Assembly (NCBI RefSeq): GCF_000015145.1
Contig: NC_008818.1
Coordinates: 540,001-572,000 of the forward strand
Source: Hyperthermus butylicus DSM 5456
GTDB taxonomy: Archaea > Thermoproteota > Thermoprotei_A > Sulfolobales > Pyrodictiaceae
Direction: 5' to 3'
Length of the DNA stretch: 32,000 bases
Below, one piece after another: positions 9,619 through 31,983 of this stretch (positions are counted from its first letter, which is position 1; every line of letters begins with the position of its first letter). Under the pieces are notes generated by a model, which was not told the DNA's origin, searched no databases, and saw nothing but the letters and a program-made list of their open reading frames with translations. Position numbers and translations under genes: made by a program.

Positions 9619-10854
9619 TTGGCGTGGGAGCCTCCCGTACCACGTGAACCCACAGCCGAGCCTCCAGTACCACACTTGGCTGAGGAGGAAGAGGAGCTAG
9701 AGTTTACCCCGGCGATACGTAGCCTCCTAGAGAAGAGCAGAGACATCGCGGAGGAGATAATAAAGAGGCTAATGGAGTTTCGCGAGCCTAGTGGAGGGAG
9801 CGGTGAGAGGCTCTGGGAGAAAATAGAGTCGGTTGTTATACGCGGCCAGCTAGGCTATGAGGAGCCCCTACCAGGCCTAGCAATAGATTCGACATTCCCC
9901 ATCGACGGTGGCATGGAGCTTATTGGGGGTAGGCTGGTTGCAATAGTAGCAGGCTACGTTAGCTTTGGCAGGCTCCAGGGCAGAATACTGCCGCGGCAAT
10001 CCTTTGCAAGTGTAAGGCTTGTAGATACTGAGGAGGCATTGAAAACTATCCCCTACCACGCTAAGCTCTACGAGAAGAAGCTGGCCATGAAGCTACTAAA
10101 GGCCATTGAGAACGGTGACGCGGATGCGAAGATAATACTGTTCGACGGCGAGCTTGTACCATACGCACTCCTCTTTAAGAGTCCCGAGTCAATAGGGAAG
10201 AGCCGCATATTATCAAGGCTATCGACTATAATGCAGAAGCTGCTGGAGAAGGCTAGGGAGCACCGCATAACCCTTGTAGGCGTTGTCAAGAGGAGCTACT
10301 CTAAGCTACTAGCAGTCTATACTGGGCGTAGGCTACCATTAAACGATAAGGCTGTTATGAGCCTAGTCCTAGACTACGGCGAATACGCTGTCGTGGGCAG
10401 GTTTGGCGACATCCTACCCAGGTACGCTGAGATAATTGCCCGCGAGAAGGGGGTAGACCCGAAGAAGTATAGGAGCATAGTGTCTGTAAACCTTAGCAAC
10501 TGCCCCGACTGCAGCAACATAGTCGTAGCCTTCTACAAGCCCCACACCAGGACACCTAGCCACCAAGCCGTAAGAGTCGAGGTGCTAGACTTTGGAGGTT
10601 ATGGGTTAGAGAGGATACTTTCAATGCTGAACAAGCTTACAAACCCCGGGACAGGGCTGCCATACCCTATAGACCTTGTAGACGAGTACATTAGGCTAGA
10701 AGCTAGGGTTCTCGAGCTGGTGAGAAGGAAGGTTATAGGCCATATAGCTCAGGTGCTTGATGTGGTTGGTCCGGGAGCGGTAATGCTGCTAGGCCATACT
10801 AACCCGGAGAAAAGATACATCTACGAGCCGAGGCGCAGGTTTACAGTAGGCTAA
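9619..10854 (+). CDS. nurA: NurA-domain nuclease-like protein
   Basis: 411 aa. NurA-type motifs appear in the expected order: LAIDSTFPIDGG, ILFDGELVPY, VGVVKRSYSKLL, LNDKAVMSLVLDYGEYAVVGRF, VRVEVL, GLPYPIDLVDEYIRLE. TTG start. The N-terminus is acidic and repetitive (EPPVPREPTAEPPVPHLAEEEEELE). Confidence 0.8.
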   Translation: MAWEPPVPREPTAEPPVPHLAEEEEELEFTPAIRSLLEKSRDIAEEIIKRLMEFREPSGGSGERLWEKIESVVIRGQLGYEEPLPGLAIDSTFPIDGGMELIGGRLVAIVAGYVSFGRLQGRILPRQSFASVRLVDTEEALKTIPYHAKLYEKKLAMKLLKAIENGDADAKIILFDGELVPYALLFKSPESIGKSRILSRLSTIMQKLLEKAREHRITLVGVVKRSYSKLLAVYTGRRLPLNDKAVMSLVLDYGEYAVVGRFGDILPRYAEIIAREKGVDPKKYRSIVSVNLSNCPDCSNIVVAFYKPHTRTPSHQAVRVEVLDFGGYGLERILSMLNKLTNPGTGLPYPIDLVDEYIRLEARVLELVRRKVIGHIAQVLDVVGPGAVMLLGHTNPEKRYIYEPRRRFTVG

Positions 10855-12431
10855 ATCTGTACCTCGTCAACTCGTAGCAGCATTGGGCGCCGCAGCGGAT
10901 TCATGAGGCCGGCCACGTAGAACTCTCTCCTACCCAGCATTGCAAGGCTAGCCTCCGTAACCTTGCCAAGATCCAGGTAGCCTGCTAGCTCCTGCAGGTC
11001 GCCCGTAGCCTGGAGCTTCGAGAAGAATACCGTGCCGAGATTGCTCCGGATACTCGTCTTGATATCTCTCGTTATTCTCTGGCTAGCAACGATTATGAAG
11101 AACCTCCACTTCCTCCCCTCCCTCGCTATGGTCTCCAACGCGTAGCTGGAAGCTCCACAGTGTTCGCACGCGTAGTTCTGAGCCTCATCCACGACCAGGC
11201 CGAGGTTTATCGGCTCCCGCCGCTCAGAGATGATCTCCCACACTGCAGATGCTATTGAGGCTAGTATGCCCCTCTTAACCTCAATATCCCTCTCATCACT
11301 TGCATCGAGGACCACCGCGCCAGACGACAACGCCTTCTCAACGATATCCCGAGGCTCATAACCCCTCGTCTTGAGACTGTCGAAGAGCTCTGGCGGCAAG
11401 GAGAACCGGGCTAGTAGCCTTAGCTTGGCTAGCGTTGGCGTCTTGAGGTTAAAGGCTTGGCCTACAACACCGAGTATGCCTAGGAACTCGTCGAACCCGC
11501 TAGCATTGCTGCCAGCTTGGCTGCTAGGCTGTGTTAGTCTTTTCTGCCGGTATACTGACCCGGTTGTGAGCTGCTGACACTCTGACGCGATGGCGGCTCC
11601 TCTGCCCTGTCCAGAGCTGTTGTAGCCATAGGCTGAGGCTGCATAGCACATAGCCGCGACTTCCACGGCATCCCTCTGGGTGCTCTGTAGGCTCCCCATC
11701 ATCCTTGTGACTATTGATGCTAGTATCTGGGGCTCTATCCTCACGCTACTAGCGCTTATCACTGGTATCCCGAGCTTCTTGGCTAGAGGCACATAGTCCA
11801 CACCGCTGTGGTCGAAGATTATGAGTTTATAGCCTGCACTAATTAGTTCCTGGATTAGCTTGGCTACAAGCCGGCTCTTGCCCGTACCAGTAGCTCCGAA
11901 GACACCTACGTGGTAGTTTATCCAGGCGGTGTCAAGGGGGAGTCTCCACCCGCTATACTTGTGCCTGCCCACGAACACTGGGCTGCTAACAGTGAGAAAC
12001 TCTGTGAGGGGCTCCGCGTTAGTAAGCCTAAACACCCTGCTACCCGGCGTGGGCGCATAGATATTGCTCTGGAAGCCCTGGCCAGAACTGCACAGCTTAC
12101 CGTTTAGGCATATGGCGCCGTAGATTTCCACGTATGCGTTGGTGAAAGGCATAACGGTCTCAATGCTCAATGCGTCGGGATGCTCTATGTAGATGTTGTG
12201 GATGCTCCTCCGGAGGAAGGGCTCATACCGGGTTATCCACCTAACCACACCGAGCATATAGTAGTCTTCTAGTCTGTGGTCATAGATGACTACCAGGTCC
12301 TCCTCGCGTACCTCAAGCTCACGATCCCTGCGCAGTGCTATTGGCGCGAATGCTACGCTGGCTCCACTAAGTACTATACCTACCTCCTCGCCCATCCGCG
12401 CTAGTGGTAGAGCCAAGGGGGCTCTCCACAA
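10851..12431 (-). CDS. herA: HerA/FtsK-like (DUF87) P-loop ATPase
   Basis: 526 aa. It has Walker A VGVFGATGTGKSRL, Walker B LGLVVDEAQNY and REGRKWRFFIIVASQR, plus an N-terminal barrel-like region. The likely true start is ATG at 12395 (MGEEVGIVLSG), with TATA-like CTATAT just upstream. Confidence 0.85.
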   Translation of the reverse strand: MWRAPLALPLARMGEEVGIVLSGASVAFAPIALRRDRELEVREEDLVVIYDHRLEDYYMLGVVRWITRYEPFLRRSIHNIYIEHPDALSIETVMPFTNAYVEIYGAICLNGKLCSSGQGFQSNIYAPTPGSRVFRLTNAEPLTEFLTVSSPVFVGRHKYSGWRLPLDTAWINYHVGVFGATGTGKSRLVAKLIQELISAGYKLIIFDHSGVDYVPLAKKLGIPVISASSVRIEPQILASIVTRMMGSLQSTQRDAVEVAAMCYAASAYGYNSSGQGRGAAIASECQQLTTGSVYRQKRLTQPSSQAGSNASGFDEFLGILGVVGQAFNLKTPTLAKLRLLARFSLPPELFDSLKTRGYEPRDIVEKALSSGAVVLDASDERDIEVKRGILASIASAVWEIISERREPINLGLVVDEAQNYACEHCGASSYALETIAREGRKWRFFIIVASQRITRDIKTSIRSNLGTVFFSKLQATGDLQELAGYLDLGKVTEASLAMLGRREFYVAGLMNPLRRPMLLRVDEVQI

Positions 12432-15925: not shown

Positions 15926-16678
15926 GTGGGAGAACCGAATGTAAAGTTTGGAGTTCCAATACTTGATAAGCTTCTCCCTCGGGGGATTCCTCGTCGCAGC
16001 CTCGTCATAATGGTTGGGGATAGCGGTACTGGGAAGTCGTTAATCACCCAGCTCATGGCAGGCAGTTTCCTACAGCGTGGCGAGAAAGTGATATACGTGT
16101 GCCTCGACGATGATCCTGAAAGCATTGTCTCCAGCATGGAGTCCCGTGGTATCGAGGCAAGACGTTATGCCCGTGAGGGCAAGCTAATACTTGTGGATGC
16201 ATATGCTTCACGTTATGGGCTTGAAACGGAGGAGTATGTAGCCGAGAAAATTAGCAGCCTAGACATACATGGTGTTTCATCCATACTAGCAAGACTTGCA
16301 GATAACAATGGGATAAGGGACTCGGGGCTGGTGATTCTAGACAGCCTGAACTCTTTCGCCTTCCGGTACGAGCCCTCAATGCTATACGACTTCTTGAACA
16401 TGCTCAGGGTTAGCCTTGCAAAGAAGAGGGGGATAACGACAGTGGCAACGTTCCATACGCCAACCCAGCTATATGCCGAGATAGCTGCCACACTAGAGCA
16501 TATGGCTGACGTGTACATAATTATACGCTACCATGAAGAAGCCCTTGAGGCTGGTGTGGCTGTTCGCGAACTACTAATCAAGAAGGCTAAGGGTGTTCCA
16601 GTAATGTTTGGCTGGGTTAAGTTCGTAATAACTGATGAAGGTATACTCGAGGCGAAAGTTAGGAAGATTGAAGGATAA
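15926..16678 (+). CDS. KaiC/RadB-like RecA-superfamily ATPase
   Basis: 250 aa. GVPILDKLLPRGIPRRSLVIMVGDSGTGKSLI (Walker A), VIYVCLDD and a Walker-B-like LVILDSLNSF. GTG start. Confidence 0.8.
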   Translation: MGEPNVKFGVPILDKLLPRGIPRRSLVIMVGDSGTGKSLITQLMAGSFLQRGEKVIYVCLDDDPESIVSSMESRGIEARRYAREGKLILVDAYASRYGLETEEYVAEKISSLDIHGVSSILARLADNNGIRDSGLVILDSLNSFAFRYEPSMLYDFLNMLRVSLAKKRGITTVATFHTPTQLYAEIAATLEHMADVYIIIRYHEEALEAGVAVRELLIKKAKGVPVMFGWVKFVITDEGILEAKVRKIEG

Positions 16679-16810: not shown

Positions 16811-17941
16811 GTGCAATGTGGAATGGTTAGGAGGCTTGCAGTAAGAAAAATTCTGAGAGCACGTAGGGCTATTCGCGGAGTACTCGTAGTGGCTACCATA
16901 TCGCTAATCTTGTCCCTACTAGGCCTTGTAATGTATGTCTTCTATGTGCCGTCGGAAGTAATTCTGATGGAGGCCTTTGTATGGCTTATAGAGGCTTTAT
17001 CATTTGGTAGTCTTGCCCTAGCCTTCAAGATAGCTGCATCGAAAACAGTTACGTATCGTGCACGATACGAGCTGTTGAGGCTTGAAGCACTTGCTGCGCT
17101 GATAACGAGTGTAGTTGCTATGTTTGTCACGTCAACAATCATGTATAAGGCTGTAACAGCAGAGCACAGGGAGCCTTCACCAATAATAGTGTCGGTATAC
17201 CCTTTGGGCAGCGGTATCATGAGCTTCATACTCGAGCACAGGCTGTCAAGGATACTGCGTGGTATGCGCATTAAACTTGTAAGCGTTAGGATGATTGCTG
17301 AGAAGCTAAAGCTAGACGTAGTATTTGAGCTGGGTGGCGGCGTAGCAATAATAGCTGCAAACCTGCTAAACTCGGCACTATATGAGACTGTTGCAGCACT
17401 AGTAATGAGCGTCTATGTGCTCATGGGTCTTTATGGTATAGCTAGAGAGGCAGCAATGCATCTCCTAGGCCTTGTGCCAAAGAGCGTTCACCGCGACATG
17501 GAGGCAAAGGTTAGAGCGTTACTGCATAAGGTTACACGGTACCGTAGGATTAGAAGGCTAAAGCTGGAAAGCTACGGTACATTTAGCGAGGTGGAACTCT
17601 GGCTAGAGGCGCCATCATCAATAAGTCTTGGCGAGGCATACTATGAATCGATAAGGATAGCGCGTGAGCTAATACATAACATTCCAGAACTGTTGCGTGC
17701 ACTTGTTGTCCTTGTCCCAGAGAAAGAGGCCACAAGCCAGCTAGCAATGAGGCTTAGCGAGGAGGTGCCAAGAACGAGACTTGGTAGACGACGTCGTCAA
17801 GTCAGACTTTCCTCTTCTCGATCAGTTTCGCGATCTTTGAGAGGTAGCGTGCAGTCCTTACAGCCTCGGCAGGTACCTCGACGAGTTCAGAGCCAACAAC
17901 AACGAAGTGGCGACGGCGAATCCCAAGCTTCATCACCTTAA
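16811..17941 (+). CDS. Cation diffusion facilitator (CDF)-like membrane protein
   Basis: 376 aa with six hydrophobic helices. A C-terminal cation-efflux-type alpha/beta domain is present (VTRYRRIRRLKLESYGTFSEVELWLEAPSSISLGEAYYESIRIAREL). The last roughly 45 aa are R/S/Q-rich and lie antisense to the next gene. Confidence 0.7.
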   Translation: MQCGMVRRLAVRKILRARRAIRGVLVVATISLILSLLGLVMYVFYVPSEVILMEAFVWLIEALSFGSLALAFKIAASKTVTYRARYELLRLEALAALITSVVAMFVTSTIMYKAVTAEHREPSPIIVSVYPLGSGIMSFILEHRLSRILRGMRIKLVSVRMIAEKLKLDVVFELGGGVAIIAANLLNSALYETVAALVMSVYVLMGLYGIAREAAMHLLGLVPKSVHRDMEAKVRALLHKVTRYRRIRRLKLESYGTFSEVELWLEAPSSISLGEAYYESIRIARELIHNIPELLRALVVLVPEKEATSQLAMRLSEEVPRTRLGRRRRQVRLSSSRSVSRSLRGSVQSLQPRQVPRRVQSQQQRSGDGESQASSP

Positions 17942-23776: not shown

Positions 23777-24551
23777 ACCCTACACACCGCCAGCCACTAC
23801 AGCCAGGAGCCCCAGGGTAGGGTTTGCCCGCATAAAATACTGTCCAAAACAATCACAGGAGGAGAGGTGGCATGTACACGTGAAGATAAAAGAGGCCTAG
23901 TTCTAGGGTGTAATCGAACACTTAGAATATGCTCCCAAGCTCTCCAAGACCTTCAAGTAGTTCTGTCCAGGTCCTCTTTACCTACCACATGCTAGCCTCG
24001 TCCTCTAACGTACTGATGTCGCCCAGGGGTGCGCTTGCAATAACAGCTTCTACCAATCTTCTCATTATCTTGTCGCTCTTGATCCTCGGTAGCTTCTTCA
24101 CTAATAATGCTCTCTACGGTACAGCTATAGGGCTGGGCACCTAGTGGGCCGTTCTTCCTGAATCTATTCCTCGGTTCAGTGCTTAGCTAGTACCCCTCGC
24201 GTAGGACCACTACGGCTAATGGTACATCGTCATTAATCGGGTCATGAACTTTTCACCACGACGGTCTTGGCGACAGCGGGTGGGAGGTCATGGCGTGCTC
24301 TATCCCGGCGGCACCGATACAGTGTTCTGCAATGTTCAACGCTCCGTCGCCGTGGCTTAGGATCTAGAAGTAGTCGTCATCATCTTTTATAGCGTAGTCG
24401 GCAAGTTAATAGATTCATTTGCCTCTCTCGAGCTCGCTAAACCCCGCCCAGTAGGTTTGGCCTGGAAGTTGATCCATAGGACTACTCAAGGATGTCTAGC
24501 GGCTCTGTGTAGCCATTTACCCATCAATGCTGTGTTCCCGGCTCTTATCGC

Positions 24552-24752
24552 ATGTTTTGCCCGGTTCTCCGCTTGGTGCTGGCTGTTGTTTATTTTATTG
24601 TCCTTAGTTGTTTGTGGCTAATAGACTGGTGTGTAGGGTTGCCTGTGCGTTGGGCTAGGATTCTAGCTGTGGTGGCTGGTCTCGCCCTGTTGGCTTTGGC
24701 AATTGGCCTCCACGTTTATGCTTGGTTTTCAGCGTGCGGTGGTGAGTGTTAG
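24552..24752 (+). CDS. Possible small two-helix membrane protein
   Basis: 66 aa, very hydrophobic (LRLVLAVVYFIVLSCLWLIDW...ILAVVAGLALLALAIGLHVYAWF). It is embedded in strongly G+T-skewed DNA within an otherwise decayed region. No homology is recognisable. Confidence 0.3.
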   Translation: MFCPVLRLVLAVVYFIVLSCLWLIDWCVGLPVRWARILAVVAGLALLALAIGLHVYAWFSACGGEC

Positions 24753-24899
24753 TGGCAGACCATTACATGGGTTTGAGCGCCGCACCATGGTGTCTATTGT
24801 TGTTCCAGGCAGGCCTTTACCCATGTTGGAGCCGAGGGCTGTAATGCTGGCGACTATCCTCGTCTGCCTCTTGAAGCATAGTCTCTGTGGGGTAGCCTA

Positions 24900-25520
24900 G
24901 CACTATGAGAGGGACATGCCTTTGGGTCTTCCTCTTCGAACTGTTTCACTATCTCGAAGAGCTTGCCGGTAACTATGCGGCTATCTCGCCTTCCTCAAGC
25001 ATGTGTAGCAATACGACCTCGGTACTTGAGTGCTCTGCTATCGTGAACGCGTAGCTGGTAACCATTTCTAGGCGGGGTAGAAGGTTGTGCAACAAGTATT
25101 TGGGCCTTTTAGTGGATCGTAGAGTGCCACAATATGCCTTCGCTGGCCCAATAACCATTACCGGGTGATCAGCAATATGTATCGCCTCCTCAGCCATACC
25201 ACCTGGCAATAGGTAGCTAACCAGATCCCGTCACGAGAATCTGAAAACCTAAGTTCCTATTATGGTGTAGTCTGCTGTAATCTCCTAGCAGCCTCGATAA
25301 TAGCTTTGGCGAGATCTTAAGTGGACAGGATCCAGTACATAAACCCGGAGCCAGCCTTGCCGGTTCGGGTGTCCTTCTCCAACTGTCTATAGGTGTTCTC
25401 GCGTAGCTTCCCCTAAGCTCTCTAGCCACAGCCTCATAGCGTCTGTTGAGGGACATCACCTATCTCGCTCAGCGCTATCGCGTGGGGCAGGCTGAGCCCC
25501 TCAGCGCCGAGTCGCTCGAG
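24900..25520 (-). pseudogene. Probable decayed gene(s): protein-like fragments broken by stops and frameshifts
   Basis: My minus-strand translation gives several fragments. One is HTH-like, LERLGAEGLSLPHAIALSEIGDVPQQTL (25520-25434). The 80-aa and 78-aa track ORFs follow, then VTGKLFEIVKQFEEEDPK. Each is in a different frame and is cut off by a stop. The original family is not identifiable. Confidence 0.3.
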
Positions 25521-25827
25521 TTAGGGCAACTACTTGGCCATGATGTTACTCGTGTTTGGTAAGTCATGCGCTGCAAGCGCATAGGTAAGCTCCAGGCCTT
25601 TCAACTTAACAACCATACTGGACCACTGTAGGCAAACCAGTAGTTATAATCAACCATCGCCGGATAAATACTGTGCAACCCTCGGGGCTCCGGGAGTCCG
25701 CTTATGCGAACACCGATACGGTGCTATTGCAAACGGTGTCTCCATGCAATGTTCCGGTATGTGGTCCCCGTACGTGGGGCTTTGTCCCTGTGAGGCTTGC
25801 CCAGAGGTCTTGCCCCCTCTGGGTTTT

Positions 25828-27096
25828 ATGCCGTATCTTCCAGCACTTGAAGCATGCGTATTGGGGGTTCTGGTGGAGGATATTCTGGAGGAGATATTTG
25901 AGCGTGTTGTGAAGTCGCGTATCTTCCGGAACAGGGACATACTGAGCCCCGACTATATACCCGATAGGCTGCCCCACCGTGAGAACGAGATACGCAAGGT
26001 TGCCAGTGTTCTGGCTCAGGCGTTGAAGGGTAGTAAGCCCAGCAACCTATTCATCTACGGGCTCACGGGGACGGGGAAGACAGCGGTAACCCTCTACGTG
26101 TTGCGGAGGCTTGAGGCTAAGGCTAGGCAGCTTGGTGTTCCCGTGAGATTCTCCTACGTGAACACCAGGCAGAGGGATACACCGTACAAGGTGCTGGCGG
26201 ACATAGCCTCCTCGATAGGCGTCCGTGTCCCGTTCACCGGGCTTTCAACTGCAGAGGTCTACGCTAGGATTGTCCGGGGATTGTCGAGGATGCAGGGTGT
26301 GCTCATCGTTGTGCTTGACGAGGTTGACTGGCTTGTCCGCCGTAGGGGCGACGACCTACTATACAAGCTGACGAGGATAGGCTATGAGTTGCCGCCTGGG
26401 GCCGCGAAGGTCTCAATAGTCGGGATAACGAACGATGTCCGGTTCGTAGAGTTGCTCGATGCACGTGTCCGGAGTAGCCTCGGGGAGGAGGAGATAGTGT
26501 TCCCGCCCTATAACGCTGAGCAGCTACGTGACATACTGTGGGAGAGAGCTAGGGAGGCCTTTCAGCCGGGCGCCGTAGACGACTCCGTGATATCCTACTG
26601 CGCAGCGCTGGCAGCTAGGGAGCATGGTGATGCACGCCGGGCCCTGGACCTCTTGAGGGTTGCGGGTGAGGTTGCTGAGAGGGAGAATGCCGATAAAGTC
26701 ACCATTGAGCATGTAAAGAAGGCTTGGAGCCAGCTTGAGAGGGATAGAGTGTTAGAGGTTGTCTCGACGCTGCCACTCCATGCCCGTCTAGTGCTCCTAG
26801 CTGCCATTGCGAGCGGTGCTGCGAACGGGTACACTACTACCGGCGAGCTATACGCGGCCTACCGGGAGCTGGCTTCAGCCGTGGGAGTGGAGAGCGTTAC
26901 ACAGCGGAGAGTTAGCGATATCATCAACGAGCTGGATATGCTAGGCATTCTCTCGGCAAGGGTTGTAAGCAGAGGCCGCTACGGCAAGACAAGAATCATA
27001 ACGCTTGCGGCTGACCGTGACACTGTACTGGAGGCGTTGAGGAGGGATTCAAGGCTTAGCGAGCTGGTTGAAAACTTACAAAACCCTAGAGGTTAG
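25828..27096 (+). CDS. cdc6: Orc1/Cdc6 replication initiator (AAA+ plus C-terminal winged helix)
   Basis: N-terminal SPDYIPDRLPHRENEI, Walker A GLTGTGKT, Walker B VVLDEVD, lid GDARRALDLLRVAG and a wH domain (TTGELYAAYRELASAVG...RRVSDIINELDMLGILSARVVSRGRYGKTR). The track ORF starts at 25744, but its first roughly 28 codons are Cys/Pro-rich and unlike Cdc6. ATG 25828, TTG 25861 or GTG 25873 are more likely starts. Confidence 0.93.
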   Translation: MPYLPALEACVLGVLVEDILEEIFERVVKSRIFRNRDILSPDYIPDRLPHRENEIRKVASVLAQALKGSKPSNLFIYGLTGTGKTAVTLYVLRRLEAKARQLGVPVRFSYVNTRQRDTPYKVLADIASSIGVRVPFTGLSTAEVYARIVRGLSRMQGVLIVVLDEVDWLVRRRGDDLLYKLTRIGYELPPGAAKVSIVGITNDVRFVELLDARVRSSLGEEEIVFPPYNAEQLRDILWERAREAFQPGAVDDSVISYCAALAAREHGDARRALDLLRVAGEVAERENADKVTIEHVKKAWSQLERDRVLEVVSTLPLHARLVLLAAIASGAANGYTTTGELYAAYRELASAVGVESVTQRRVSDIINELDMLGILSARVVSRGRYGKTRIITLAADRDTVLEALRRDSRLSELVENLQNPRG

Positions 27097-28060: not shown

Positions 28061-28570
28061 ATGGAGTTGGAGATTAGGCTTCAGCCTATTGGTGTGGTTC
28101 GTGTTGATGCTAGTGACGAGGAGGTGAAGAAGGCTTTACATGGCGTTGAAGGGGTTATAGAGGTTTTCCCGGAGTATGAGGCAGGGCTGAATGGTATTGA
28201 AGGGTTTTCCCACATAATAGTTATAGCGTACCTACACAAAGTCACGGATGAGCAGAGGAGTGTCCTCCGGGTGCGACACCGTAGGCTTGAAAGGCTAGGT
28301 GTCGACCTTACCGGTATACCTGAGGTTGGCGTCTTCTGCACAGACTCGCCGCACCGGCCCAACCCTATAGCATTGAGTATAGTCGAACTAGTCGAGAGGA
28401 AGGGTAGGTTCCTAAGGGTACGAGGTCTAGACCTCTTCGATGGTACACCTGTATTGGACATTAAGGGATACGATAGGACGAGGTGTATTAGGGAGATTAG
28501 GGTTCCCTGGTGGCTTGAAGAGCTCGAGAAAAGGGTTGGACGAGTACTGGGTGAGCCAAGCTTTCTCTGA
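28061..28570 (+). CDS. trmO: TrmO/TsaA-family tRNA methyltransferase (YaeB-like)
   Basis: 169 aa. Matches include LQPIGVVRVD, GIEGFSHIIVIAYLH, RPNPIALSIVELV and LDLFDGTPVLDIKGY. Confidence 0.85.
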   Translation: MELEIRLQPIGVVRVDASDEEVKKALHGVEGVIEVFPEYEAGLNGIEGFSHIIVIAYLHKVTDEQRSVLRVRHRRLERLGVDLTGIPEVGVFCTDSPHRPNPIALSIVELVERKGRFLRVRGLDLFDGTPVLDIKGYDRTRCIREIRVPWWLEELEKRVGRVLGEPSFL

Positions 28571-29165
28571 AGAATGGTTTGCCGGATGCAACTTTGCAAT
28601 GCAACCCCCATGGCTGTAATGAATCCAGGTTGGCACCCGGATCCCTACCCGGTGCCTAGCTACAACAAGTGTTGAGCTCGAACAGCGAGTTTATGAAGAA
28701 GCCTATTGTGCTGTCAAAAATAGGAGCCTATCTTTCTCCACTCCTACCCACTCCATTCTAGGAACCAAGAGATCAAACCATTCCAGCTGATGTAGATATC
28801 CAAGCATCTAGGCTATCGGTTATTATACCACCTATCATTATGAGCATGAATGTTGTAGGCAAACCTGTTTGAAGTGTGGAGTCTTGGGATCTAGCGTGTA
28901 TACAGCCATAGCCAGGAAGGTAATCATCATCATAAGCTTCGTATAGAATAGTTGTTCCCTGGATTCCATCTCATGGATCTTAATAACTGTGTTGTTGGAT
29001 GGGTGTCCGTTGACGTAGACAGGGAATCGCTGTAAACAGGACAAGCCACATAGATAGTGCAGTAGCTAAGCCCAGGTGGCTCAATACTTCTCCCTTGCAA
29101 GTCGATTTCATGCGTAGGGTGCAGCATTCCTGATTGGATGGGTGCACCTAGGCGTTTAAGACAAG

Positions 29166-29220
29166 TGTTCTGTGCAACTGCACAAAACTATATGAGGCCC
29201 TTCTGTGCAGTTGCACAGAA
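29166..29220. promoter_or_regulatory. Promoter bracketed by two 20-bp palindromic operators
   Basis: Site B is TTCTGTGCA-GT-TGCACAGAA (29200-29219), a perfect 9-bp-arm palindrome. Site A is TTCTGTGCA-AC-TGCACAAAA (29167-29186), with one arm mismatch. 29166-29183 is the exact reverse complement of 29203-29220. The centres are 33 bp apart. An A-rich BRE-like stretch plus CTATATGA (29181-29194) lies between them. The ATG is at 29234. Confidence 0.6.
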
Positions 29221-29233
29221 CTAGTGGGAAGCT

Positions 29234-29479
29234 ATGGTGTGGTGGGGTCCCCGGCTAGGCTGGGGCCGTGGTTGGTGCTGGTGGTGGCGGGGTCCATGGC
29301 CAGGTAAGGGGCCGTTTAGCCATCTGCCGCCATGGCTGCGGCCTGGCTGGTTAATGGGCTGGTGGTGGCGCTGGCTAGCAGCCTGGCCAATGCCGTGGCT
29401 CTACTACAGCTACTACGGCTACTGGCAGTCAGCATCCTGGCCACACAGCTACCCCGTGTACCCCTGGCCCTGGTGGTAG
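29234..29479 (+). CDS. Trp-rich low-complexity small protein (ORF A)
   Basis: 81 aa with 21 Trp by my count: MVWWGPRLGWGRGWCWWWRGPWPGKGPF...YPWPWW. The ATG is 14 nt after operator B. It shares the GWGRG motif with ORF C using different codons. The frame is uncertain because the locus is open in several frames. Confidence 0.4.
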   Translation: MVWWGPRLGWGRGWCWWWRGPWPGKGPFSHLPPWLRPGWLMGWWWRWLAAWPMPWLYYSYYGYWQSASWPHSYPVYPWPWW

Positions 29480-29482
29480 GCC

Positions 29483-29716
29483 ATGATCTCTCAGCTATAC
29501 CCTCCATATATGCCACTGCCATGCTGGCCACCAGCACTGCTTGCGCCGCCATACCCATACCCCTATGATCCAGCAGCGCTGCTCTACGCTGCTAGCTGCA
29601 TGCTGGTAGCACCATACTACTACGCAGCAGTAATAGAGGCGTATAGGGCGGTAATCGATGCCTGGAGGAGGGCCCTGGAGACACTTGCAGCGGGGTTGGG
29701 GCAGAGGCAAGGGTAG
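29483..29716 (+). CDS. Pro/Tyr-rich small protein with a C-terminal helix (ORF B)
   Basis: 77 aa: LYPPYMPLPCWPP...APPYPYPYDP, then AAVIEAYRAVIDAWRRALETLAAGL. It starts with stop-GCC-ATG spacing after ORF A, the same spacing used in the exosome operon. It shares the PYPY motif with ORF C. Confidence 0.4.
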   Translation: MISQLYPPYMPLPCWPPALLAPPYPYPYDPAALLYAASCMLVAPYYYAAVIEAYRAVIDAWRRALETLAAGLGQRQG

Positions 29717-30146
29717 AGGAGGCGGTGGAGCCCCCTGGTGGGTCCAAGAGGGTTTAGCCGAACACTTACAGCCCCCAAGCCATGGTAGGGGATGGGGGAG
29801 AGGTTCGGGAGCCATGTTTGGCTACTGGTATAGGTGGATGAGGCGGCTTGTGTACTACGCGCCACCACCCCCGCCGCCCCCACCGCTACCGCTGCAGCAA
29901 CAGCAGAGCCAGCAGCAACAATACCCCTACCAGTACCCTCCATACCCATACTATCCGCCGATACCACCATACCCGTACTATATGCCACCAATCCCACAGA
30001 GTCCCGAGGAAGAGCTGGAGATGCTAGAGGAGTACAAGAAGATGTTAGAGGAGGACCTCAAGGAGCTACAGGAGGAGCTGAAAAGCGTCGAGGAACGAAT
30101 ACGGGAGCTAAGAGAGATAATTAGGCATAGAAGCAGCAAAGCATAG
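29658..30146 (+). CDS. Gly/Arg/Trp- and Pro/Tyr/Gln-rich protein with a C-terminal coiled coil (DUF5320-like architecture)
   Basis: 162 aa: MPGGGPWRHLQRGWGRGKGRGGGGAPWW...GRGWGRGSG...PPPPPPPPLPLQQQQSQQQQYPYQYPPYPYYPPIPPYPYYMPPIP, then SPEEELEMLEEYKKMLEEDLKELQEELKSVEERIRELREI. The coiled-coil tail is clearly protein-like. The family resemblance is from memory. Confidence 0.6.
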   Translation: MPGGGPWRHLQRGWGRGKGRGGGGAPWWVQEGLAEHLQPPSHGRGWGRGSGAMFGYWYRWMRRLVYYAPPPPPPPPLPLQQQQSQQQQYPYQYPPYPYYPPIPPYPYYMPPIPQSPEEELEMLEEYKKMLEEDLKELQEELKSVEERIRELREIIRHRSSKA

Positions 30147-30171: not shown

Positions 30172-30176
30172 TTTTT
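30172..30176 (+). terminator. T5 tract after the aromatic-rich operon
   Basis: TTTTT lies about 26 nt after the ORF C stop (30144-30146). Confidence 0.35.
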
Positions 30177-30684: not shown

Positions 30685-31983
30685 ATGGTCTCGGAGGCAC
30701 TGTCGCTACTGGTATTCCTAGCAACTATTGTCGCGATAAATGCCAGGATTATCGATGAAACGGTTGTCGCTCTAGTCGGGCTTACAGCGATGGTCGTGCT
30801 GGCGGGTTATCGGCCGGATGACGCCTTTCACGCTGTGGACTGGAATGTTATAATGATACTGCTCGGTATGTGGATGATAACAGCCTACCTTAACCGTGCA
30901 GGGTTTTCGGAGGCTGTAGTACGTTTCGTCTCTAGGAGGGTTAGGGACTACCGTCTATTCCTGGTATATCTCATGCTCATAGCTGGCTTTATATCGATGT
31001 TCGTCGATAATGTGCTTGTAATCCTCCTCCTAGGCTCAATGGTCATAGAGGCTGCTCGGAGGAATGGGGCGAACATAGGCCTAGCGGTACTCATGATAGG
31101 GTTCTCTGCGAACTTCATGGGTACAGCCTTGTTGATGGGTGATTTGCCGCCTCAGCTTCTCCACAGTGTGGCAGGTGCAGAATTCCTAGACTTCATATGG
31201 AGCCGTGGCAAGCCTAGCAGCTTCCCACTACTCACGATTACATTCCTCGCTGTAACTGGGTTGATGTACTTCCTCTTCATAAGGCGTGAACCTTCGATGC
31301 TCCAGCTGCCAGAGACTAGTAGCAGTGGAGTGGGGGCTGATCGGAGGCTTCTAAACATCTCGGTATTCTTCTTCGCGGCAACCGTAGCCGCTATGGCTCT
31401 AAGGCCCTTGCTCGGCGTGCCCCTGGGCTTCATAACCATTGCTGGTGCCTCGCTGCTAGCACTAACTGTTGAGGTTTGGAGACGGCTAGGAGGCAGAGTA
31501 CCGTCCTTTGAGGAGATTATCGGCGATGTGGAGTGGCGTGCGCTAATGTTCTACGCGCTCCTATTCAGCCTCGTAGGCGGGCTCGAGGAGTCCGGTGTGC
31601 TGCGGCGAGCTGCCGAGCACCTACAACCCTACGTTCAGGCCGGCGGCGTAGCCGCCTATACGGTGTTCTACTGGGTCACCGGGCTTCTATCAACGATGAT
31701 TGAGCATGATGCTCTTCTTCTCACATTCCTCTACATAGTCCGTAATGCTGCAAACCTCGCGGGGGTCGATGCGTGGCCCCTCTACTGGGCCATGGCGTGG
31801 GCTGCAACTCTAGGCAGCAACGCGACGATAGTAGCAGCCCCAGCACTATACGTTGCAGTAACCATGGCCGAGAAGGCGGGCCACAGAATATCACCCAGAG
31901 AGTTCCTACGCTACTCCCTCACATACGCTACAGCCTCGCTAGTCATACACTACCTCCTAACACTACCGCTCTGGGGCACCTAG
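30685..31983 (+). CDS. ArsB/NhaD-superfamily anion/ion permease
   Basis: 432 aa, polytopic. The N-terminal pattern (LLVFLATIVAINARIIDETVVALVGLTAMVVLAGY...VDWNVIMILLGMWMI) and the C-terminal half (LGSNATIVAAPALYVAV) are typical of ArsB/NhaD/CitMHS-type permeases. Confidence 0.8.
   Translation: MVSEALSLLVFLATIVAINARIIDETVVALVGLTAMVVLAGYRPDDAFHAVDWNVIMILLGMWMITAYLNRAGFSEAVVRFVSRRVRDYRLFLVYLMLIAGFISMFVDNVLVILLLGSMVIEAARRNGANIGLAVLMIGFSANFMGTALLMGDLPPQLLHSVAGAEFLDFIWSRGKPSSFPLLTITFLAVTGLMYFLFIRREPSMLQLPETSSSGVGADRRLLNISVFFFAATVAAMALRPLLGVPLGFITIAGASLLALTVEVWRRLGGRVPSFEEIIGDVEWRALMFYALLFSLVGGLEESGVLRRAAEHLQPYVQAGGVAAYTVFYWVTGLLSTMIEHDALLLTFLYIVRNAANLAGVDAWPLYWAMAWAATLGSNATIVAAPALYVAVTMAEKAGHRISPREFLRYSLTYATASLVIHYLLTLPLWGT

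Follow-up and report, generated by a model that had tools for sequence, protein, structure and literature searches.

Towards the end of a 32,000-nucleotide stretch of the genome of Hyperthermus butylicus DSM 5456 (the window; NC_008818.1, positions 540,001 to 572,000) lie three small open reading frames (ORFs), A, B and C, which we conclude with high confidence to be a real, conserved and regulated operon related to the DUF5320 family (PF17253). The frames had been described in an earlier note made from the sequence, and their coordinates, lengths, composition and motifs were all confirmed (Table 1). ORFs A and B belong to one reading frame, in which they are parted by TAG-GCC-ATG alone; ORF C lies in the +1 frame, and its start overlaps the final 59 nt of ORF B. 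Together the three frames make up a single compact, operon-like transcription unit. The run of five T residues beyond ORF C is a possible terminator, which would set the operon apart from the permease gene that follows; archaea are known to use oligo-T terminators.

The evidence that these frames are genuine comes from related loci. A scan of one genome per species with an alignment of C-like sequences gave 22 loci, every one of them in a metagenome-assembled archaeal genome (Desulfurococcales, Thermofilaceae, Thermoproteales and bins labelled Thaumarchaeota, Baldrarchaeota and Hadarchaeota), which were then searched with profiles in six-frame translation. An A-like ORF was found just 5' of the C-like gene in 19 of the 22, with a B-like ORF between them in 15 loci, and the complete A-B-C trio is present in at least 15 other species-level archaeal genomes; in two loci (L011 and L020) C and the A-B pair are divergently oriented. 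Across the 18 codons of the A core, positional entropy is 0.15, 0.14 and 1.02 at codon positions 1, 2 and 3, respectively, and the codon differences comprise 1335 that are synonymous against 303 that are not. Of the frames compared across 20 loci, that of A alone is open in every one; the alternative frames are broken in most relatives, and neither the competing ORF at 29332-29568 nor the reverse-strand ORFs gave any family match. The earlier note had regarded the frame assignment as insecure, and had been prepared to abandon it if orthologous loci conserved another frame, such as that at 29332-29568. On the strength of the codon-position entropy and of the single frame open throughout, the assignment can now be taken as settled for A, B and C.

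ORF A contains 21 in-frame TGG codons against two in each of the other two frames, and shuffling of its DNA gave 2.56 +/- 1.52 in-frame TGG codons, with a maximum of 10 in 20,000 shuffles. Of the 189 open stretches of 60 aa or more that the six frames of the window contain, it ranks first both in tryptophan (26%, the runner-up having 10%) and in aromatic residues (36%, the next having 21%). No substantial tandem DNA repeat underlies the tryptophan excess (best TRF score 39), and the motif GWGRG, as direct reading confirmed, occurs three times across A and C, each time with different synonymous codons.

The boundary between A and B deserves separate comment. In 20 genomes the A-like frame stops at one and the same place, after ...PWW. 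The gap between this stop and the start of B varies between -34 and +25 nt across loci; B is found in each of the three possible frames relative to A, and each of the three stop codons is used. Because every frame relation and stop codon occurs, there is no conserved read-through and no pseudogene; the in-frame TAG of H. butylicus marks an ordinary gene boundary. The Trp-Trp-stop codons of A place a GGTGG element 5-10 nt ahead of the B start in most loci, and the equivalent ...tggtggtga/tag... also precedes B in L008, L009, L013, L014, L022, L023, L024 and L027, which suggests that the two genes are translationally coupled; the Shine-Dalgarno role of these codons would partly explain the conserved WW end of A. 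Ribosome-binding elements of the GGTGA type also precede A and C.

With all starts tried, ORFs A and C have no exact match in a collection of ~15 billion predicted proteins; the same collection does contain ORF B and both flanking genes. It might be supposed that the locus is a single DUF5320-like gene, either decayed or mis-framed, with a nonsense TAG between A and B and a +1 frameshift between B and C, or else that the true product is the 29332-29568 frame or a reverse-strand ORF. The single TAG within the common frame of A and B, the +1 position and 59-nt overlap of C, the existence of single-polypeptide homologues, the high GC content that keeps other frames open and the absence of A and C as called genes would fit such a reading, but it is largely refuted, and hardly credible, in view of the fixed A stop in 20 genomes, the variable A-B gap, the separate start codons and GGTGA-type ribosome-binding sites of the B-like and C-like genes, and the broken, unmatched alternative frames.

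Table 1. Features of the A-B-C locus and its flanks (window coordinates)
Feature	Position	Strand	Description
TrmO gene	28061-28570		Upstream flank; exact match to WP_048061415
Operator 1, TGTGCAACTGCACA	29171-29184		Perfect palindrome; directly upstream of TATA-like box
TATA-like box, AACTATATGA	29186-29195	+	~40 nt upstream of A ATG
Operator 2, TGTGCAGTTGCACA	29204-29217		Perfect palindrome; between TATA box and start, 17 nt before A ATG
ORF A	29234-29479	+	81 aa; 21 Trp (26%), 13 Pro, 10 Gly, one Cys, zero Asp/Glu
A invariant core, WPGKGPFSHLPPWLRPGW	29297-29350	+	Conserved in A-like family
A-B junction, TGG TGG TAG GCC	29471-29482	+	GGTGG Shine-Dalgarno-like, 5-10 nt before B ATG
ORF B	29483-29716	+	77 aa; Ala/Pro/Leu/Tyr-rich, then helix; RefSeq WP_048061416 'hypothetical protein'
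ORF C, long form	29658-30146	+	162 aa; GWGRG motifs, P8, Gln run, PYPYY, helical tail
C alternative start, Met53	29814	+	110-aa form; family-conserved start
C residues 52-67			W/R-rich helix, then poly-Pro/Gln/Pro-Tyr linker
C residues 116-161, PEEELEMLEEYKKMLEEDLKELQEELKSVEERIRELRE	30003-30140	+	Conserved helix; AF2 pLDDT 91-98
Oligo-T run (TTTTT)	30172-30176	+	26 nt past ORF C stop; read from sequence; candidate terminator
SLC13/CitMHS permease gene	30685-31983		Downstream flank; exact match to WP_011821776

Protein families and their relation to DUF5320

The A-like proteins have 72-101 aa, 14-26% tryptophan, 35-44% aromatic residues and, typically, one cysteine; acidic residues are absent from 19 of 20 of them. 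They share a core with the consensus WPGxGPFSxLPPWxRPGW, followed by FGRGAC, and end in ...PWW. The H. butylicus protein (16% Pro, 12% Gly, 6 Arg/Lys, a single Cys and nothing acidic) has GWWWR in place of the family's GRGAC, and the core is followed by a Trp/Tyr/Pro tail of 40-50 residues. Tryptophan is the rarest and costliest amino acid. That purifying selection should have kept it at these levels, along with so many other aromatic residues, in several archaeal orders is most unusual, and it implies a chemistry for which indole rings are needed. AlphaFold models A alone at a mean pLDDT of 58, that is, as low-confidence or disordered. A profile of the family retrieves at least 765 proteins, nearly all of the named ones being called 'hypothetical protein', from Desulfurococcales, Thermofilum, Geothermarchaeota, Methanomethylicota, Nezhaarchaeales and Bathyarchaeia.

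It is through fused homologues that A is connected to DUF5320, a family of anaerobic archaea and bacteria whose function is uncharacterised. A query composed of A and B retrieved three archaeal proteins (P0005-7) that share GPWPG(R/K)GPFSHLPPWxRPGWL with A; a Pro/Tyr stretch and then a coiled coil follow the A-like part, and one of the three is assigned to PF17253. The A-like profile likewise retrieves proteins annotated with PF17253, amongst them the Bathyarchaeial P0134 and P0142 (88 aa), each called a 'DUF5320 domain-containing protein', in which an A-type N-domain (WPGRGPFS.LPPW.RPGW..GRGAC) is joined directly to the coiled coil. Since a fusion of N-domain and coiled coil is what bears the PF17253 annotation, A corresponds to the N-terminal half of DUF5320 and C to the C-terminal half, and in Thermoproteota the two halves are separate, elaborated genes.

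Full-length C itself scores 27.4 bits against PF17253 (gathering cutoff 27), by way of its helix: residues 105-143 align to profile positions 62-98, and the helix fits the DUF5320 heptad type (E/D)ELxxLExxxxxLExxLxxIxxRIxEL. The same protein begun at Met53 (23.5 bits) and a C-like orthologue (24.8 bits) fall below the cutoff, and A, B and their orthologues have no PF17253 match. The suggestion in the earlier note that the trio has a DUF5320 architecture is thus borne out, narrowly, for C by this score and for A by the fused homologues. There are nevertheless clear differences from the family: the halves are encoded by two genes, between which a third family, B, is interposed; A has been extended by its Trp/Tyr/Pro tail, and C by a W/R helix and a poly-Pro/Gln linker. 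The combination of N-region and helix in one polypeptide with GRGxC is not found in H. butylicus, where A is separate and GRGxC is lost.

The N-terminal part of C begins MPGGGPW..GWGRGKGRGGGG and contains a second motif, GRGWGRGSG; the middle of the protein consists of a P8 run, QQQQSQQQQ and PYPYY repeats, and an E/K/L helix forms the end. Both candidate starts are preceded by plausible ribosome-binding sites. The N-terminal 52 residues that distinguish the long form are found in H. butylicus only and are predicted to be disordered (AF2 pLDDT <50 for residues 1-51). An exhaustive HMMER search with C returned 53 small proteins of 40-230 aa that align from about residue 53 onwards, with the pattern MxWWxRRWRR, a Pro/Tyr/Gln-rich stretch and SPEEELxMLEEYKKxLEEELKxLxEELKxVExRIxELK; identity within the helix is 58-79% across orders. 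Searches of PDB sequences found generic coiled coils only, and no related solved structure. In four of the relatives of C (P0013, P0024, P0026 and P0039), two different DUF5320-type helices stand in tandem and in either order, one of the PEEELxMLExY type and the other of the TPEQERxMLEQQAxALExQIEAIKKRLEEL type, which hints that the two types may pair with each other.

B consists of a Pro/Tyr-rich N-terminus, an uncharged segment of ~20 residues (LLYAASCMLVAPYYYAAVI) and an amphipathic helix (EAYRAVIDAWRRALETL). Its relatives have 59-81 aa and are rich in aromatic residues and Met, with the consensus MYWWY..PPY..DP.., some 20 uncharged aromatic/Met residues including PYYY, and ..E.YR..LDAWRKA.E. 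Neither the B-like nor the A-like proteins have a match in Pfam or NCBIfam, and B would seem to be a separate conserved family that lacks a Pfam model. The A and C genes are near-identical between the closely related genomes of L012 and L016; in L012 (5716-6336) A is followed directly by C, whereas L016 (5132-6132) has B, so B must be dispensable or have been lost in some lineages.

The earlier note had also seen in the locus a local duplication, with A followed by B collinear with C and one copy of the module split in two. This did not hold. The division into A, B and C is ancient and conserved across orders, and therefore not local; the N-terminal 52 residues of C, tried as a homologue of the A domain, score -6.3 bits, a value equalled by 274 of 2000 shuffles; a comparison of A with the C-like proteins gave no match; and the match of B to the C coiled coil, of which it might have been a diverged copy, has an hhalign probability of only 25%.

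Operator and candidate regulator

Both palindromes ahead of ORF A have the form TGTGCA-NN-TGCACA, and they are the only two perfect matches in the window. The AACTATATGA box, a putative promoter element, aligns with TTTATAT and TTTAAAT boxes of related loci, whose placement relative to the operator is the same. The palindrome itself recurs upstream of A-like genes in most of these loci, 5' and/or 3' of the TATA box; the 3' site is present in L007, L011-L014, L016, L018-L022, L024, L025, L027 and L028. Archaeal repressors classically bind at a site so placed, 3' of the TATA box and ahead of the start codon. Palindromes with no more than one mismatch number 14 in 258 kb of fetched DNA, against ~0.6 expected, and all 14 precede DUF5320-type genes (including the fused genes of L003 and L026), a NifX-like gene (L012) or the intergenic region between DUF134 and C-like genes (L025). 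There is no such palindrome at the permease gene of the window.

The commonest neighbour of the module is a gene for a DUF134 helix-turn-helix protein, found at 12 of the 22 loci. In the mechanism that we propose, a dimeric regulator bound to the palindromes would gate transcription of the trio, and the best candidate for it would be a DUF134 protein, which in H. butylicus would be encoded elsewhere in the genome. In three loci (L019, L021 and L024) the operator reads TGAGC..GCTCA and the DUF134 recognition region reads PRSTLWRI, the latter being otherwise SRGTLWR. This apparent covariation is suggestive but thin, and TGAGC half-sites are seen elsewhere as well. The DUF134 proteins encoded beside the module (L008, L011, L012, L017-L021, L023-L025 and L027; cluster c0) begin with a W/R/G tail, PWRWRWGRRGRGRPPKPR, which resembles the tails of A, of C and of the NifX-like proteins described below; it could be a ligand- or partner-binding element that all of them share.

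Neighbouring genes and proposed function

That no neighbouring gene explains the function of the trio, as the earlier note had it, is true of the window and untrue of the relatives, in which the trio lies in or beside clusters of DUF134, NifX-like and MinD-ferredoxin genes. NifX-like proteins (PF02579) are encoded at 8 of the 22 loci, or at nine with L003, a type-2 DUF5320 locus that was fetched separately from the 22. Pairs of MinD-type ATPases with two 4Fe-4S (ferredoxin) motifs are found at five of the 22, MoeA at four, and DtxR-type iron repressors, radical SAM proteins and Lrp/AsnC-type regulators (four with L003) at three each. In L015, L020, L027 and L028, A, B and C stand in one same-strand string with a NifX-like gene and two MinD-ferredoxin genes. 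DUF5320 relatives keep the company of DUF134, NifX-like and ParA/Mrp genes, and the loci of P0005 and P0007 have a DUF134, NifX-like and MinD-Mrp neighbourhood. A possible role as precursors of ribosomally synthesised and post-translationally modified peptides was set aside, radical SAM genes being near only three of the 22 loci.

Tails such as MGYGWGRGQGKGRGRGRGG...PPPPP are found at the N-terminus of the NifX-like neighbours, and some NifX-like proteins of other archaeal lineages (L003 749-1555 and L026 3429-3998) end in a DUF5320-type helix, such as EIQMLENQKKLIEEQLKAVEERIKELK. The occurrence of this helix on NifX-like proteins marks it as a portable module, shared by small proteins and cofactor-binding domains. 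MoeA, the molybdopterin molybdenum/tungsten transferase, is encoded directly 3' of the C-like gene in L012 (6444-7694), L016 (6240-7484), L019 (6606-7862) and L021 (6617-7864), and near a fused DUF5320 gene in L002 (1-806); this linkage may possibly indicate a role with molybdenum or tungsten sulfide rather than with iron.

Amongst the roles first put forward for the trio, metal binding is the one that gene context would favour. We propose, tentatively and with rather less than even confidence, that the trio has a part in binding or organising inorganic iron-sulfur material, a suggestion drawn from their composition and from gene linkage. The parallel is with IssA (PF2025, Q8TZG9), the thioferrate iron-sulfur storage protein of Pyrococcus furiosus, in which a NifX-like domain binds Fe and S and a 70-residue tail, first proline-rich and then cationic, aromatic and glycine-rich, has conserved or repeating Trp, Gly and Arg (PMC5524996). 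The tail holds the only cysteine of the protein, is predicted to be unstructured, has a pI of ~10.7 and, it has been proposed, wraps itself around the thioferrate anion (PMC5524996). Tails of this kind are also present on the NifX-like neighbours of the module. At the level of composition A corresponds to such a tail, being Trp/Gly/Arg/Pro-rich, cationic and disordered with one cysteine, and it lacks a globular domain; hence the proposal that the trio supplies such tails in trans. The differences are that the IssA tail is fused to an IPR003731 (NifX-like) domain and that the Trp content of A is far higher. H. butylicus is, like the host of IssA, a hyperthermophile that reduces elemental sulfur.

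The scheme would run as follows. A and B would be made in coupled fashion, with the WW-stop codons of A serving as the ribosome-binding site of B, and all three proteins would do, as separate molecules, what the cationic, single-Cys tail does in IssA. A, with its 5-10 Arg/Lys and no acidic residues, would wrap an anionic thioferrate-like iron-sulfide polymer or related metal-sulfide anions by means of charge and aromatic stacking. The helix of C would oligomerise and tether the assembly to NifX/IssA-like and MinD-ferredoxin partners of the kind known from the ORP cluster of Desulfovibrio vulgaris. In Desulfovibrio the NifX-like Orp8 and the MinD-ferredoxin proteins Orp3 and Orp4 form a metal-cluster complex, and MrpORP sits at the cell pole (PMC6345978). 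The same types of protein as Orp8, Orp3 and Orp4 are encoded in L015, L020, L027 and L028. However, no DUF5320-type, A-like or B-like subunit is mentioned in that work (PMC6345978), the ORP cluster is controlled by sigma-54 and an enhancer-binding protein rather than through a palindromic operator by a TATA box, and the H. butylicus locus is without the ATPase and NifX-like genes.

Several points weigh against a role of the trio in iron-sulfur handling, which is itself argued from composition and linkage. The likeness of A to IssA comes from the description of the tail in PMC5524996 and not from an alignment, and none of A, B and C matches PF02579 or IPR003731, the part of IssA that binds Fe and S. 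The family cysteine of GRGAC is missing from that position in H. butylicus A, and the A-like protein of L017 has no cysteine at all. There are no DUF134, NifX-like or MinD-ferredoxin genes in the H. butylicus window, so that the linkage to iron-sulfur genes is borrowed from other genomes. Genes of the Lrp/AsnC and DtxR types also recur nearby, and the case for DUF134 as the regulator is circumstantial. Finally, a composition rich in Trp and Arg also fits binding at a membrane interface or to nucleic acid.

A bolder form of the iron-sulfur proposal, which we regard as rather doubtful, is that the trio represents a new class of trans-acting 'wrapping' proteins for inorganic polymer: disordered Trp/Arg proteins would template, coat or solubilise a thioferrate-like iron sulfide or a thiometalate, a coiled-coil helix would dock them, and a DUF134 switch would sense the same material through its W/R tail. 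If this were true, a function would be assigned to DUF5320, to DUF134 and to their widespread cluster in anaerobes. The analysis itself links these two families and an unnamed family of at least 765 'hypothetical proteins' in one regulated module, and connects them to the only characterised relatives of their neighbours, the thioferrate store IssA and the ORP metal-cluster complex. Iron-sulfur storage and traffic in strict anaerobes thereby become approachable by way of three small proteins, one operator and one candidate regulator.

The best placed of the alternatives, although still fairly unlikely in our estimation, is that the three proteins serve an ORP-type ATPase complex of NifX-like and MinD-ferredoxin proteins as its scaffold or adaptor subunits and do not themselves bind mineral. 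The C helix would dock on partner helices, and the aromatic, Arg-rich regions would self-associate, as a condensate or polar cluster, and thereby concentrate the iron-sulfur machinery. The C helix is far better conserved than an unspecific coiled coil would have to be, NifX-like proteins bear it as well, P0013, P0024 and P0039 each combine two different helices, the genes stand in one string with MinD-ferredoxin pairs, and the polar location of MrpORP and the complex formed by the ORP proteins would be in keeping with this (PMC6345978). Yet the H. butylicus trio does not have these partners nearby, and a scaffold would leave unexplained both the complete lack of acidic residues in A and its likeness to a known anion-binding tail.

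Membrane association is also unlikely, and to a greater degree. The Trp/Arg-rich A and the W/R helix of C would then lie at the interface and B would insert its ~20-residue segment, so as to anchor or remodel the membrane or to serve the permease, the gene for which is 540 nt downstream of ORF C. The best 19-residue Wimley-White octanol energies, -8 to -16 kcal/mol for B and -9 to -19 for A, are compatible with this, as is a Kyte-Doolittle mean of 1.58 for the B segment of H. butylicus, and MinD-like membrane-binding helices have been reported in Orp3 and Orp4 (PMC6345978). On the other hand, the proteins lack a signal peptide, B reaches a Kyte-Doolittle value of no more than 0.3-1.0 in most relatives, and a conserved proline lies in the middle of the segment. 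The permease, rejected as a functional partner, adjoins the module in none of the 22 loci and is without the operator.

RGG-type binding of nucleic acid, or a stress-induced condensate unrelated to metals, is quite improbable. A does contain GWGRG and GRG repeats, a high positive charge and predicted disorder, and the DUF134 regulators at the same loci carry similar W/R/G tails; but the recurrent neighbours are metal-cluster proteins rather than enzymes of RNA or DNA, and an invariant core of 18 residues points to a specific fold or partner and not to generic RGG behaviour. The likeness of the trio to indolicidin, tritrpticin and RGG-box proteins, seen in W/P/R clusters such as WPMPW and PWPWW and in the GWGRG and GRG repeats, is one of composition only. 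The Trp/Arg membrane-active peptides are secreted and of 13 residues, and RGG boxes are RNA-binding domains of eukaryotes; the trio differs from all of these in having no homology to them, no signal peptide and another genomic context.

In the searchable literature there is no paper on PF17253; DUF5320 is mentioned in passing, and the core motifs appear in none of it. In databases the families are already present, as hypothetical proteins with no name. The module of three genes, the operator ahead of it, the reading of A and C as a split DUF5320 and the parallel with the IssA tail appear to be undescribed so far.

Other features of the window

Between the TrmO gene and the first operator (28612-29170, 560 nt) there are only short reverse-strand ORFs of 55-68 aa, none of which occurs in the collection of ~15 billion proteins; the original GenBank record numbers one entry, ABM80457, between those of TrmO and the permease. 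A 176-aa reverse-strand ORF at 28081-28611 wholly overlaps the TrmO gene and is most likely a shadow ORF produced by composition. Scans of the window for Rfam families and tRNAs gave no matches. Genes with no relation to the trio encode a NurA nuclease (+) and a HerA/DUF87 ATPase (-), which are convergent at 9619-12431, a KaiC-like ATPase (15926-16678), a CDF cation-efflux protein (16811-17941), an AIM24 protein, a TtuA-like PP-loop enzyme and an amidase. At 25744-27096, 2.1 kb upstream of the trio, is a gene for an Orc1/Cdc6 replication initiator (NCBIfam PRK00411 family, 493 bits); a quick search near it for the crenarchaeal ORB-like motif and for repeats found nothing convincing. The ~2 kb that precede this gene (23777-25743) contain no ORF of 100 aa or more and could be a replication origin.

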